Positions 1,293 to 34,361 of a stretch of DNA of 64,000 nt are shown piece by piece. The DNA is taken from contig OY970355.1 of assembly GCA_963718525.1 (NCBI GenBank), positions 2,240,001 to 2,304,000 of the forward strand, in the 5' to 3' direction. The stretch's first letter is position 1; every line of letters starts with the position of its first letter. Under the pieces are notes generated by a model, which saw nothing but the letters and a program-made list of their open reading frames with translations, searched no databases and was not told where the DNA came from. The position numbers were made by a program, and so were the translations under genes. The DNA is from Candidatus Dormiibacterota bacterium. GTDB taxonomy: Bacteria > Chloroflexota > Dormibacteria > Aeolococcales > Aeolococcaceae.

Positions 1293-2538
1293 TTCGCAGC
1301 CCTTTGCAGGGCAGTGCAGCCTTGTCCAGCCAATTCCACCCCCAGTGATGTCCCGTAGTGTGGTGTAAATCCGGGGTGACCCCAGCGCTGCCGACGAGGT
1401 AGACAAAGAAGGCCACCGCGGAGTTCTCTTGGAAGCTCTTACCCAAACCAGGAGACCCACGATGGCCCAGAACAGGATGATGCCCCCGGCACTGCTCGAG
1501 CAACTCCAGGGCGCAGACACGGACGTGTTGCGGCGCGTCCTCGAACACGCTATGCAGCGCTTGATCGAAGCCGAGGCGTCCACCCAGATCGGCGCCGGCC
1601 CGCACGAGCGAGCTTCAACGCGCACCACGTACCGCAACGGCTATCGGGAGCGGATCCTCGACACCGGCTCGGGACGCCTCGAGCTGCAGATCCCCAAGCT
1701 GCGCACGGGGAGCTTCTTCCCGACCTTGCTCGAGCCGCGACGGCGTATTGATCGGGCCCTGCTGGCGGCGGTCCAGGAGGCCTACGTGCTCGGCATCAGC
1801 ACTCGCAAGGTCGACGATCTCATGGCTGCGCTGGGCGGCTGCAGCATCAGTCGCAGCGAGGTGAGCAGGATCTGCGCCCTGCTCGACGAGGAGCTCGCCG
1901 AGTTCCGGGAGCGCCCCCTCGATGAGCCGTACCCGTACGTGTGGTTCGACGCCACGTACGAGAAGGTGCGTCAGGGCGCCCGCATCGTCAGCCAGGCGGC
2001 GGTGGTGGCGGTGGGCGTGCGCGACACCGGCGAGAAGAGCGTGCTCGGCCTCGCCATTGGTGCCAGCGAGACCGAGGCCTTCTGGCTGGAGTTCTGCCGC
2101 AGCCTGGCCCGGCGCGGGCTGAGCGGCGTACAGCTGGTCATCTCCGACGCCCACGAAGGGCTGCGCAGTGCCTTGTCCCAGGTGTTCGCCGGCGCGACCT
2201 GGCAGCGCTGCAAGGTGCACTTCCTCCGCAACGTGGCCAGCGCGGTCCCCAAGCTGCACGCGCCGGCGGTGCTCGCGGTGGTGAAGTCGATCTTCCTGCA
2301 GCCCACTCGCGAGACTTCCCGTGACGCCGTGAACCACGCGCTCAGCGTCTTGGAGCCACGCTTCCCAACTGTGGCTGCCAAGCTCCGCGCCGCTGAGGCC
2401 GATGTGCTCGCCTATCTGGACTTCCCGGTCGACCACTGGCGCTCGATCTCTTCGACCAATGCCATCGAGCGCGTCAACGCCGAGCTCGATCGTCGCGCCA
2501 AGGTGGTGGGCATCTTCCTGCGTCTGTACGCTCTCCCG

Positions 2539-2722
2539 TGGCAGTGGCGGAAGCACCGCTGTTGCTGCGAGGCTCCCGTGGGGCCGAGGGTGACCCGGCA
2601 TTTTTCTGTCGAGCCCTCGGGCTCTGACCTGGTTAGGGCCAGTCCCCTCGGTCTTCGCGGGTGGCCGAGTGACCTCATAGCGGCGTGAATACTGAACGGC
2701 AGGAATGTCCGAGGCCATCCAC
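2539..2722 (+). ncRNA. Predicted IS110 bridge RNA (5' hairpin, target-binding loop, donor-binding loop); ends approximate
   Basis: Hairpin 2541-2565. Stem ccgaggg(2584-2590)/ccctcgg(2645-2651) encloses GGCATTTTTC(2597-2606), inner hairpin 2611-2624 and GTTAGGG(2632-2638). Stem gggtggcc(2659-2666)/ggccatcc(2713-2720) encloses CATAGCGGCG(2676-2685) and GCAGG(2699-2703). Confidence 0.85.
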
Positions 2723-2746
2723 CCATCAACACCACGGAGGGTCGGC

Positions 2747-3802
2747 ATGGTCATCATCGGCATCGATTGCCACACAAGGGTTCATGTGGCTGCAGCCATT
2801 GACGGATCGGGGCAGGTCTGTGCGCGCTTCACAGCGGGTGCCAAGGCTGAGGAGCTCGAAGCGCTCACAAGGTGGGCGTGCCAACAAGCAGCCGGCCTGA
2901 TCGCCGTCGAGGGCGCACGAGGCTTTGGCCTCGCGCTCACTCGATGCCTCCTCGCCGCTGGCTTGGAGGTCGTCGATGTCCCAACGCACATGACCGCTGA
3001 CGGGCGCCGTCAGAGCCGCCGTCCGGGAAAGGACGATGAGAGCGATGCGGTGGTCATCGCGCGAGTTGCACTACGTGAACACGACCTGCCGCGGTTGCGT
3101 CCGGCGCATCTTGACTCGGATCTCAAACTGCTGGTGGACGCACGCGATCAGGTTGTTGCAGAAGGCACTCGTGTACGCAACCGGCTGCATGCGCTGCTGC
3201 TCACCGTGTCGCCCGGCTACCGCGATCACACCGGCGCTCTGTCGAGCAAGCGCGCACTCATCGTCGCTCGTCGCTTGGTGCTCCGAGCACGAGCGGCAGA
3301 TCCGGTTCGCTGCCGCCTGGCCCTTGCAGCCATTCGCCAACTCCACGCCATCGATGCTGAAGCAGCCGGGCTGGAGGGCGAGATCAAACAAGCCGTGAGC
3401 GCAAGGCACCCGAAGCAGCTGCTCGCCATTTGCGGTGTGAGCACGCTGGTGGCCGGCAAGCTCCTCGGTGAGGCCCACGACATCACACGCTTCCCGACGG
3501 CGGCGTCGTTCGCAGCCCACGCTGGCGCCGCCCCGCTTCCGGCATCGAGCGGCGTCACGCGGCGACACCGTCTCAACCGAGGCGGCAACCGTCAACTCAA
3601 CCGAGCCCTCTTCACGATCGCCATGGTGCAGGCACGCTGGCACCCTGGAGCGGTCGCCTATCTGGAGCGAAAACGTGGCGAAGGCAAGCGACCCGCCGAA
3701 GCGCGACGCTGCCTCATGCGCCACCTTGCGGGTGTCGTCCACCGCGCCATGTTCCTCGACGCGACCGCGGTCAGCGCGAGTTCGGCCATGCCTGCCGCTT
3801 GA
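2747..3802 (+). CDS. IS110 DEDD recombinase/transposase
   Basis: MVIIGIDCH, AVEG, GKDDESDA (RuvC-like DEDD), PLPASSG (catalytic Ser region), RLNRGGNRQLNRAL; RBS ggagg at 2736-2740. Confidence 0.93.
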   Translation: MVIIGIDCHTRVHVAAAIDGSGQVCARFTAGAKAEELEALTRWACQQAAGLIAVEGARGFGLALTRCLLAAGLEVVDVPTHMTADGRRQSRRPGKDDESDAVVIARVALREHDLPRLRPAHLDSDLKLLVDARDQVVAEGTRVRNRLHALLLTVSPGYRDHTGALSSKRALIVARRLVLRARAADPVRCRLALAAIRQLHAIDAEAAGLEGEIKQAVSARHPKQLLAICGVSTLVAGKLLGEAHDITRFPTAASFAAHAGAAPLPASSGVTRRHRLNRGGNRQLNRALFTIAMVQARWHPGAVAYLERKRGEGKRPAEARRCLMRHLAGVVHRAMFLDATAVSASSAMPAA

Positions 3803-3804
3803 CA
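3799..3804 (+). promoter_or_regulatory. -35 box (TTGACA) of the IS110 circle-junction promoter; -10 TACGCT at 2527-2532
   Basis: On circularisation the junction reads TTGACA-tagcggcg-CC-tgcgtctg-TACGCT, an 18-bp spacer. Confidence 0.75.
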
Positions 3805-4342
3805 TAGCGGCGCCCCAACAGCGCCTCACTGCTGCGGCTGTTCACCGCGGTGCTCCAGGACCAGCACGACGAGTGGCAGGACGGCCGCCGTCACTTCAGT
3901 CAGCAGTCGATGGCTCGCGTTTTGCACCCCGACGGTCCGCCCTTGCTCACCAACCCACTCACGGAGGGACTGGTCGCGTAGTTCACCGACGTTGTGAGAA
4001 CTCCACCGAATTCACACCACTACCGGGGACTTGACCCCACCCCCTTCCAACTTTCGGGGATCAGTCACTGTGCAGGGACTAGTCCTTATTCGCTAATTGA
4101 TGGCCTTTCCTGCAAAACCACTCTAATGTCGTGCGGCCAAACGGCGATGTCCCGAGCGGGGCGCGACGCTCGCTTCGGGCCATTGCTTGGCGCGCCGCGG
4201 TCGGAAATGCGGCTGCGACTGAACATCCGTTCACCCGGATTGAACGCCTTGATGAGTGACGCCAAGGCGACCGGAGTGATGCTCTAGCAACCGGCCCTAC
4301 CGTACTCGGCCTTAATCGGCGGCGAGAGCAAAGGAGGTAATC

Positions 4343-33019: not shown

Positions 33020-33149
33020 AAGAGGATCGCCACGTCGCCGCGTCCTTTATAGCTCGGATGCGGGAGTCCGGTCGCGACATGATTTGCACGGTCCGCTCGC
33101 TGCCGAGCCCCGTCGGCGCCTTGACGTGTCCAATCCACTTCGCGGTGAC

Positions 33150-34361
33150 CTACTGTGTCTTCGCAGCGTGCGCCCACGCCACCTCGAAGCGCGCGCCGCC
33201 CCCGGGAAGATTCTCAACGTGCCAGGCGCCGTGGGTGCCCCGAACGACCGAATCGGCGATGGCGAGGCCGAGCCCCGCTCCCTCACCCCGGGAAGTGGCC
33301 CGATGGAAGCGCTCAAAGATCGTCGTCAGTTCGCCCGGGGGCACCCCTTCGCCGTCATTTGACACGGCGAGTCGCACTCCCTGGCGGTCAGTCTGGCGAA
33401 CCTGCACGTGCACACACCCACCGACGCGAGCATGGCGGCACGCGTTATCGATGAGGACAGCCGCCAACCGATGCACCCACTCGGGTGGCGCCGCTATGAG
33501 CACAGGCGTCGAAGGTACGTCCACGTCGATCTGCACCATGCGCTGCTTCGCGATCGCCGTAAAGCGATCCGCAGCGACGGTGGCCAGCGTCGCCAGGTCG
33601 AGTGTTTCCGACTCAGGACGCGATGGTTCCGCGTCCGAGCGCGCCAACCACAGCAGGTCCTCGATGATGCTCCGCATCCGCACGCCCTCGGTGGCGACAC
33701 GACCGAGTGCCGAGCGCAGATCGTTGTCATCTCCTGAAAGACCGAGGCTGGACTCGGCTTGGATCACGCTCAGCGGGGTCCTCAATTCATGCGAGGCGTC
33801 AGCGGTGAAGGCCAGTTGGCGCTGTCGCATACGTTCAATGGGACCGGCGACGCGCCGACCAACCAGCAAGGCACCAATGAAAACAAGGAGGAGCAGCAGC
33901 GGTCCGATGATCAGTTCCGAGACCACGAGGTTACTCATTGCGCGCGACGTCTCGGACAGGCTGGCCGCTACCACCACGCGTTCACCGTGAGGGACCGTCA
34001 TTCCCTCCAGCCGGAAGTTCGTGCCATTGACACGGCCCTCGGTGAACGCCCTTGTGGTGCGCAGATTAGTCGGTAGAGCAGGTGTGCCGACCGTCGAGGT
34101 CGTGGTGCCATTGGATCGAATCACCCACGCCAGGATTGGCTCATCGAAGTCGTGGTCGGTCGATGTCGCTAGGGCGGGGGCTACCAGACTGCCACCGAAG
34201 GTGGCGAGGCGTCCCTCGAGGCGCTGATCGACACCATCGATGAGGCTGTGCTCCACGAGGAGATCCGTCGCGGTCAGGACGGCGGCAAGCATAGCGGCCA
34301 TGAGACATGTGGCAATCGCAGCTGTGCGGATGGCGCGACTGCGCAGGGGTGCGGTGCTCAT
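33150..34361 (-). CDS. Sensor histidine kinase
   Basis: Two TM; ADASHELRTPL, LIDNACRH, IFERFHR, GAGLGLAI. Confidence 0.93.
   Translation of the reverse strand: MSTAPLRSRAIRTAAIATCLMAAMLAAVLTATDLLVEHSLIDGVDQRLEGRLATFGGSLVAPALATSTDHDFDEPILAWVIRSNGTTTSTVGTPALPTNLRTTRAFTEGRVNGTNFRLEGMTVPHGERVVVAASLSETSRAMSNLVVSELIIGPLLLLLVFIGALLVGRRVAGPIERMRQRQLAFTADASHELRTPLSVIQAESSLGLSGDDNDLRSALGRVATEGVRMRSIIEDLLWLARSDAEPSRPESETLDLATLATVAADRFTAIAKQRMVQIDVDVPSTPVLIAAPPEWVHRLAAVLIDNACRHARVGGCVHVQVRQTDRQGVRLAVSNDGEGVPPGELTTIFERFHRATSRGEGAGLGLAIADSVVRGTHGAWHVENLPGGGARFEVAWAHAAKTQ

Follow-up and report, generated by a model that had tools for sequence, protein, structure and literature searches.

An IS110-group insertion sequence within an IS256-family transposase gene, with a left end that very probably encodes a bridge RNA

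The stretch of DNA analysed here, hereafter the window (64,000 nucleotides; contig OY970355.1 of assembly GCA_963718525.1, positions 2,240,001 to 2,304,000 of the forward strand), contains an IS256/Mutator-family transposase gene that is interrupted by an insertion sequence of the IS110 group. The inserted element is 1294 bp long and consists of a long non-coding left end, a gene for a DEDD/Tnp recombinase and a short right end. We consider it very probable that this is a mobile insertion sequence and that its left end encodes a bridge (seek) RNA, the guides of which can be assigned to the target and to the ends of the element. The features of the locus, in window coordinates, are as follows.

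1429-2518, plus strand: 5' part of the IS256/Mutator-family transposase gene (Pfam Transposase_mut, 2.7e-116), cut after the Phe codon of ...VGIF
2509-2518, plus strand: left target and left core copy, GGCATCTT + CC (= GGCATCTTCC), assigned from the single CC in the empty site L039
2519-3812, plus strand: IS110-group insertion sequence, 1294 bp, delimited by a second, 100% identical copy with flank identity ending there
2519-2746, plus strand: left end of the element, non-coding, 228 nt, upstream of the recombinase gene
2527-2532, plus strand: candidate -10 hexamer TACGCT, which would be usable only after circle formation
2736-2741, plus strand: ribosome-binding site GGAGGG, 5 nt ahead of the ATG (sequence reading)
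2747-3802, plus strand: IS110-family DEDD/Tnp recombinase gene, 351 aa (Pfam, NCBIfam, profile alignment)
3799-3812, plus strand: right end, in which a -35-like TTGACA overlaps the TGA stop, with the left donor sequence of 10 nt
3803-3812, plus strand: right end proper, 10 nt past the TGA stop, which is the left donor sequence (sequence reading)
3813-3980, plus strand: right core copy (3813-3814), with which the IS256 transposase gene resumes (3' part)

The extent of the element follows from comparison with other sites in the same genome, which is available as one contig of 3.34 Mb. A second copy (L001, G000:C1:2470513-2471806) is 100% identical to that in the window over exactly 2519-3812 and interrupts, at the equivalent codon, a paralogous IS256 gene; the flanks of the two copies are 96% and 92% identical as aligned, and 89% identical over the 319 bases left of the junction. 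Three more IS256 copies in the genome (L039, L040 and L042) are free of the insertion, and these intact paralogues all read through the site with one YC (TC or CC): L039, 100% identical to the window over the 319 bases that precede the junction, reads GGCATCTT-CC-CCAACAGC into the right-flank sequence of the window, L042 has the same site, and L040 has TC instead of the first CC. In the window, CC is present on each side of the element, at 2517-2518 and 3813-3814. From the identical second copy and the empty sites, the element is thus defined as 1294 bp flanked by duplicated CC, and its insertion made a clean 2-bp CC duplication; the CC core that a first-pass annotation of this DNA, made from the sequence alone, had claimed is borne out by the single CC in L039. 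The same arrangement is seen in contigs of four soil-metagenome runs from one study (the kind of run was guessed and is probably DNA): position 2516 is joined to 3813 with 1296 bases skipped, which is an empty site, a TC-type empty site is present as well, and a filled site contains a variant that differs at about 3% of positions (44/1396) and has T at 2517. Altogether, the genome carries five IS256-family copies with the target motif (L038-L042), two of them occupied by the IS110 element and three empty, so the available target sites are not saturated. The junctions of the second copy, like those of the metagenome variant, are TC on the left and CC on the right, the combination that recombination of a CC donor with a TC target, with retention of the top-strand product, would give; since the two genomic copies share 31 nt of identical right flank, later mutation or gene conversion is also compatible with these junctions. 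Terminal inverted repeats are absent, and a long non-coding left end combined with a short right end is the organization of the IS110 group.

The affiliation of the recombinase is clear. The open reading frame at 2705-3802 matches, above their cut-offs, the Pfam domains DEDD_Tnp_IS110 (PF01548; 6.4e-25) and Transposase_20 (PF02371; 3.1e-19), and the protein read from the ATG at 2747 scores 164.5 bits against the NCBIfam equivalog NF033542, 'IS110 family RNA-guided transposase', for which the cut-off is 140. When a profile of six relatives is aligned with chain 8wt6, residues D7, E55, D97, D100, S268 and G269 fall on D11, E60, D102, D105, S241 and G242 of IS621, under the assumption of a 2-residue offset between the chain and native numbering of 8wt6; all six residues of catalytic type are invariant in the alignment of relatives (A7).

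Upstream of this gene, the left end can be folded into a 5' stem-loop followed by two modules, each with an internal loop in which candidate guide strands are exposed.

2537-2569, plus strand: 5' stem-loop of the putative bridge RNA, 14 bp with a 5-nt loop (minimum free energy, MFE, folds)
2580-2655, plus strand: target-binding module (RNAalifold, pair counts), with outer stem 2580-2590/2645-2655, GAC/GUC closing pairs 2592-2594/2642-2644 and inner hairpin 2608-2628
2611-2615/2620-2624, plus strand: GAGCC/GGCTC pairing of the inner hairpin, within the target internal loop
2659-2720, plus strand: donor-binding module (RNAalifold, pair counts), with stem 2659-2666/2713-2720, pair G2669-C2710 and GAC/GUC pairs 2671-2673/2707-2709
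2597-2606, plus strand: left target guide (LTG) GGCAUUUUUC, in the same sense as 2509-2518
2632-2640, plus strand: right target guide (RTG) GUUAGGG (2632-2638), followed by the candidate handshake bases CC
2676-2685, plus strand: left donor guide (LDG) (C)AUAGCGGCG, identical to the right end 3803-3812 at 10 of 10 positions
2696-2705, plus strand: right donor guide (RDG) ACGGCAGG (2696-2703), followed by the candidate handshake bases AA

The support for this fold is comparative. RNAalifold applied to six left ends recovers both stem/loop modules and the inner hairpin. With 36 pairs held fixed across six close relatives, 97.2% of 214 cells are paired, and changes on both sides are found in 9 of the 36 pairs; none of 500 shuffles reaches the observed value, and when the partner is slid by 1-3 columns the paired fraction is 33-51%. 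A covariance model of the two modules, derived from seven sequences, yields exactly one match in the window (2575-2726) and one full-length match in each of 12 further elements, where the match is on the coding strand and immediately precedes the recombinase gene; the recombinases of these elements are 36-43% identical to that of the window, and the model E-values range from 5e-10 to 2e-3. Over 19 sequences, 94.3% of 682 cells are paired (31-47% in the slid controls), and the presence of compensatory change in 33 of 37 pairs indicates selection on the RNA fold. The structure drawn in the first-pass annotation, for which it had called for folding and covariation across homologues, is therefore supported in six close relatives and in 19 sequences, and its parts can be located individually: the 5' stem-loop is the 14-bp hairpin at 2537-2569 of the MFE folds, the internal loop placed around a GAGCC/GGCTC hairpin lies at 2611-2624 and is closed by 2580-2590/2645-2655, and the strands said to close the donor loop, GGGTGGCC (2659-2666) and GGCCATCC (2713-2720), can form 8 bp, with one G-U, that enclose both donor strings. 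Five other relatives have 5' hairpins of unrelated sequence at the same place. The RNA encoded by the 228-nt left end would be about 185 nt in length and span approximately 2539-2722.

A separate observation concerns the way in which the loops are closed. Both of them (2591-2594/2642-2644 and 2667-2673/2707-2712) have a stem, an unpaired U and GAC paired with GUC, the donor module additionally contains a tandem G-A/A-G next to the GAC/GUC closure, and UGACC stands ahead of three of the four guide strands. The shared closing motif and UGACC may be a protein-recognition feature of the clade.

The four guides are assigned as follows. In both loops, the 5' side has the sense of the top strand and the 3' side that of its complement, as is the case in the IS110 group, and the strand, side and order of the guides follow the rules of IS621 (PMC11208160), in keeping with the IS621 bridge-RNA architecture that the first-pass annotation had proposed. 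The LTG GGCAUUUUUC is identical to GGCATCTTCC at eight positions and has U opposite C at two, each of which would form rU-dG with the bottom strand. The RTG GUUAGGG is complementary to CCCCAAC (3813-3819) at six of seven positions, and the RTG of L003, L005 and L013, GUUGGGG, is its perfect complement. On the donor side, CATAGCGGCG is found, exactly as had been stated, both at 2676-2685 and at 3803-3812, immediately after the TGA of the recombinase gene, and GCAGG (2699-2703) is the reverse complement of CCTGC (2517-2521), that is, of the core CC and the first three bases of the element. The complementarity between the RDG ACGGCAGG and CC+TGCGT amounts to five contiguous bases (CC+TGC), or seven with one bulged base. 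The earlier estimate of about 10 nt for the left guides needs correction in detail: the donor guide matches at 10 of 10 positions in the window and has a secure length of 9 nt (see below), and in the target guide 8 of 10 positions agree and U replaces C at the other two. The 10-mer CATAGCGGCG occurs three times in the window, with 0.17 occurrences expected on both strands, and none of 100 shuffles reaches three.

The third copy of CATAGCGGCG lies far from the element, at 33487-33500 on the minus strand, where it is extended to 14 nt and combines the two bases before the loop copy with the CC after the right end; it is located inside two long overlapping open reading frames (33058-33990, plus strand, and 33150-34361, minus strand). 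This copy may be due to chance or may represent a pseudo-donor site.

In IS621, the base that follows the RTG pairs with donor position 7, and the two bases that follow the RDG pair with target positions 7 and 6 (PMC11208158). Judging from the sequence, the corresponding handshake pairs are available here: C2639 has a possible partner in G3812, with which the right end closes (donor position 7), and the possible partners of A2704 and A2705 are T2516 and T2515 (target positions 7 and 6). The candidate handshake bases do not pair with their own substrate before exchange, and the first base of each candidate pair is kept in all seven close relatives. At the core positions, the LTG (UC), the RTG (GG) and the RDG (GG) can pair with a YC core; with UC in the LTG and GG in the RTG, both target guides would accept TC or CC.

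Do the guides change together with the DNA that they are supposed to recognize? The relatives used to address this question are L003 (of which L004 is a duplicate), L005, L006, L007 and the decayed L009, all found among nine loci when 185,579 species genomes were scanned; L013, from a sample of 401 genomes of the phylum; and L049 and L050, from plasmid pYJNG of Microbacterium sp. YJN-G (NZ_CP060403.1), one record from a plasmid collection. The comparisons exclude the duplicate L004, the fragment L008 on a 1.1-kb contig and the C-terminal fragments L010 and L011, of about 60 aa, and L009 serves as a counter-example. The 401 sampled genomes contain one close relative (G293), and 13 further genomes of the sample have relatives of 36-43% identity; the recombinases of the close relatives are 58-67% identical to that of the window. 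At position 3 of the element, the window and L005 have C, whereas L003, L006, L007, L013 and L049 have T, and the partner of this position in the RDG is G or A accordingly in seven of seven. At position -8 of the right end, T is changed to G in L005 alone, and the change is mirrored in the LDG of L005, so that agreement is again complete (7/7); in the decayed L009, the donor loop disagrees with the right end at this very position. In L009 (CAVQFJ010000010.1, 1-3233), the target loop is without its 5' half and the reading frame of the recombinase is broken. The LDG agrees with right-end position -10 in five of seven relatives, which is why the secure length of this guide is put at 9 nt.

The target is invariant within the close clade, and distant relatives were therefore compared. 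These have different strings in the alignment columns of the LTG, and in 6 of 10 (L014, L015, L016, L018, L022 and L031) the string is an exact match of 8-9 nt to the element's own left flank, searched over the 14 nt that precede the conserved TGNGTG with which each left end begins. When strings and flanks of unrelated groups are compared, no match exceeds 7; for L021, the value is 7 in the copy itself and 9 in a sister copy. The donor loops and right ends of the distant relatives share ATAGGAG, where the window has ATAGCGG. Covariation between the loops and the donor and target sites of homologues, on which the first-pass annotation had made its bridge RNA depend, is thus present.

Three groups of multi-copy relatives, all at 38-40% identity, are worth describing separately: L018, L029, L032, L035 and L037 (G349); L021, L030, L033 and L036 (G253); and L024, L031 and L034 (G366). 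These groups have in common the right-end motif CTTGACATAGGAG and a matching donor loop, and their targets are other repeats; the target of the G349 group is a palindromic GGTCGCC/GGCGACC repeat, and that of the G253 group lies just upstream of ATG start codons. The left and right junction dinucleotides often differ in the three groups, so that the core is not defined by simple duplication in these cases.

All seven distinct close relatives are inserted after the same Phe codon (Gly-Ile-Phe|Pro-Asn) of IS256-family genes, and tblastn alignments with the N-terminal part of the IS256 transposase from the window end, in each relative, at residue 363 and no more than 2 nt from the junction. The host genes are 39-81% identical to one another over the last 200 codons and have no stops there in any of the seven, and recombinases that are 83% identical (L003/L006 and L006/L049) are found in host genes with 45-46% identity. 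The use of the same codons in such divergent hosts argues for independent, sequence-directed insertions. Where the LTG deviates from the targets, it does so at the third codon position of Gly, Ile and Phe, and the deviating base of the RTG faces the third position of Pro; U at the third-codon positions of the LTG would, by rU-dG wobble, tolerate C or T in the target (TTC/TTT, ATC/ATT). Outside the close clade, L014 (43% identical; G158:C277, about 880-2130) is also inserted in an IS256-family gene, about 20 codons upstream, at an ...EHW... motif, and its first-loop guide matches 8 nt of its own flank, which suggests that the habit of targeting IS256 genes is older than the close clade. Whether we are dealing with a clade of actinobacterial bridge-RNA insertion sequences that are parasitic on IS256, with a wobble-tolerant target loop tuned to GIFPN and a YC core that is possibly orthogonal, appears to us evenly balanced.

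Two further observations belong to these loci. On the contig of L014, a second, different IS110 element (L028, 41% identical) is found about 580 bp downstream. On plasmid pYJNG, L049 and L050 (30674-35856 and 70524-74534) are identical IS256::IS110 composites with identical host-gene flanks, so that the nested pair must have been duplicated as a unit; the gene table of NZ_CP060403.1 lists for them only an 'IS110 family transposase'.

By analogy with IS621, we infer the following course of events. The element would be excised as a circle in which the right end, one CC and the left end abut, and the RNA would be made either from a promoter created at this junction or by read-through from the host IS256 gene. 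Recombinase dimers would bind the two RNA loops, the first of which would pair with both strands of the target, GGCATCTT-YC-CCAAC, which specifies the Gly-Ile-Phe-Pro-Asn codons of IS256/Mutator transposase genes, and the second with both strands of the circle junction, ATAGCGGCG-CC-TGCGT; the strands would then be exchanged at the CC core by Ser268 and the DEDD site. Transcription, formation of the ribonucleoprotein, chemistry and junction promoter are all part of this analogy. With the ends abutting around one CC, TTGACA (3799-3804) and TACGCT (2527-2532) would be separated by 18 nt, and CTTGAC is invariant in seven close sequences, six of them distinct, and is kept in the relatives of 36-43% identity. 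The circle junction was not seen in the contigs of the four metagenome runs. The element is always oriented like the host gene, so the RNA could alternatively arise by read-through from the IS256 promoter.

Several observations weigh against a mobile element guided by an RNA from its left end and have to be considered together. The MFE of the left end is ordinary for its composition (z = -1.3; the sequence is G+C-rich), and the MFE structure does not include the donor stem; an Rfam scan of 2300-4000 with E up to 10 returned five weak unrelated matches and no bridge-RNA family, Rfam being a collection that may itself hold none. The alignment of 19 sequences was fitted to the structure of the model, so that pairing is favoured in it; the fold is accepted nevertheless, in view of the size of the effect and of the independent MAFFT result on the close relatives. 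As for the guides, the LDG is followed by UG, which would place U-G and G-G at the bottom strand of the CC core and leave the core unpaired by this guide, a mismatch also present in relatives; the RTG has one A-C mismatch; position 3 (A) of the LTG mismatches the targets in relatives; in 3 of the 10 distant relatives (L017, L025 and L026), the first-loop guide fits the flank poorly; and a wobble-tolerant test of guides versus flanks is non-discriminating, with off-diagonal values up to 12 and at least 10 reached in 30 of 2000 shuffles. With regard to expression, close relatives do not retain the putative -10 hexamer of the junction, a scan of the linear element gave no sigma-70-like promoters and no terminators, and the runs that carry the sequence, namely the four soil-metagenome contig runs, include no RNA run. 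Finally, the alignment of the RuvC domain with IS621 is weak (domain i-E 0.097), in contrast to that of the Tnp part (8e-13).

Some of these points could be accommodated if the internal copies of the ends and of the target acted as DNA, as sub-terminal repeats bound by the recombinase or as a promoter or 5'-untranslated region, with no guide RNA involved. The unexceptional MFE, the probable DNA nature of the metagenome runs, with no transcript data among them, and the occurrence of TGAC ahead of both the right-end donor sequence and the loop guides are all compatible with such a scenario. It does not account for compensatory changes in 33 of 37 pairs over 19 sequences or for the strand rule, one sense on the 5' side and the other on the 3' side, that is shared with the guides of IS621, and the element belongs to a family in which bridge or seek RNAs have been demonstrated experimentally (PMC11208160, PMC11187229); we regard this scenario as the least probable of the alternatives, with hardly any weight. 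Almost as improbable, in our view, is that the common site goes back to a single insertion that an ancestral IS256 received long ago, after which the two co-diverged or the composite moved, without RNA targeting. The plasmid composites in identical IS256 copies show that the nested pair can be duplicated as a unit, and the 31 nt of identical right flank in the second genomic copy would also fit gene conversion. Against this stand the incongruent identities of recombinases and host genes, the host frames without stops in the last 200 codons in seven of seven, the coexistence of empty and filled sites in one genome and in metagenome contigs, and the match between the loop sequence and the site; in its simplest form, that of a single old insertion with subsequent co-divergence, the scenario is ruled out by the 83% versus 45-46% identity and the lack of stops in the hosts.

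A milder alternative, which we consider unlikely and yet clearly more credible than the preceding two, retains the bridge-RNA insertion sequence and holds that the copy in the window is no longer mobile. It draws on the A-C mismatch of the RTG, on the missing pairing of the LDG with the core, on the negative promoter scan of the linear element and on the occupation of only two of the five IS256 targets in the genome. However, the two copies are 100% identical in host genes that differ by 4-11%, the frame is open with the catalytic residues present, and a variant with about 3% difference occupies the same site in metagenome contigs that also contain empty sites. The description of the element as intact in the first-pass annotation accordingly finds support at the level of the sequence, in the open frame, the catalytic residues and the two identical copies, as well as in the occurrence of both filled and empty sites, within one genome and also among the metagenome contigs. 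The recombinase may further be programmable and orthogonal, as that annotation suggested. Taken together, we favour a mobile IS110-group insertion sequence with a bridge RNA encoded in its left end.

This element is a well-supported new example of a known RNA-guided recombination system rather than a new mechanism. It adds an annotated natural bridge-RNA system from high-G+C Actinomycetota in which guides, candidate handshake bases, core, donor and target are readable by eye. If it is active, the CC/TC core would widen the range of addressable sites, and the system might work beside existing bridge recombinases without cross-talk. In biological terms, an RNA-guided insertion sequence would use a conserved coding motif of another insertion sequence family as a safe landing site, in hosts that include Microbacterium, Marmoricola and Mycobacteriales, and each such insertion inactivates the host insertion sequence. 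Among the papers listed, judged by title and abstract, none describes an IS110 element that targets IS256 genes; the supplementary target tables of the 2024 papers may include one.

The closest characterised systems are IS621 and ISCro4 (IS622) of E. coli and Citrobacter (PMC11208160; PMC11208158; bioRxiv 10.1101/2025.05.14.653916). In IS621, target binding falls to the first loop and donor binding to the second, the 3' side of each pairs with the top strand over 4-7 nt, and the right donor guide pairs discontiguously (PMC11208160). The element in the window has in common with these systems a DEDD RuvC-like domain joined to a Tnp domain with a catalytic Ser; a gene preceded by a long left end and followed by a short right end with a -35-like hexamer; an RNA in which a 5' stem-loop, a target loop and a donor loop follow in this order; loops that pair with the bottom strand on the 5' side and with the top strand on the 3' side; a discontiguous RDG; bases after the right guides that, as far as the sequence goes, are candidates for the handshake; and a 2-bp core at each side of the element. 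The protein similarity is remote, alignments of single sequences being confined to the Tnp domain (E 1e-7 and 4e-6). The variant features, as read from the sequence, are the YC core, the lengths of the guides and an LDG without core pairing. The core is CC here, with TC tolerated at the target, and CT in IS621 and ISCro4; in IS621 and its relatives, the second core base is an almost invariant T that is read by the backbone at G63 (PMC11208158), so that the element lacks the second T characteristic of the IS621-like subgroup. All four guides of IS621 are described as pairing with the core, a rule to which the LDG is the exception here. The LTG comprises 8+2 nt, as opposed to 7+2 nt, the LDG, of 9-10 nt, abuts the core without pairing to it, and only 10 nt of right end follow the stop codon. 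As its natural target the element has a protein-coding motif of another insertion sequence, whereas that of IS621 and ISCro4 is a REP-type repeat. In ISEc21, which is of the IS110 type, the upstream non-coding region encodes a seekRNA that is needed for circle formation and targeted insertion (PMC11187229); the position of the RNA-encoding region upstream of the gene is common to the two elements, whereas the target and the ends differ and the system described here is known from its sequence. Within the wider IS110/IS1111 family, a member of the IS1111 group also lands in another mobile element; its RNA, however, is located downstream of the gene, and its target is a non-coding terminal repeat, as opposed to the coding motif of a transposase gene that the present element interrupts.

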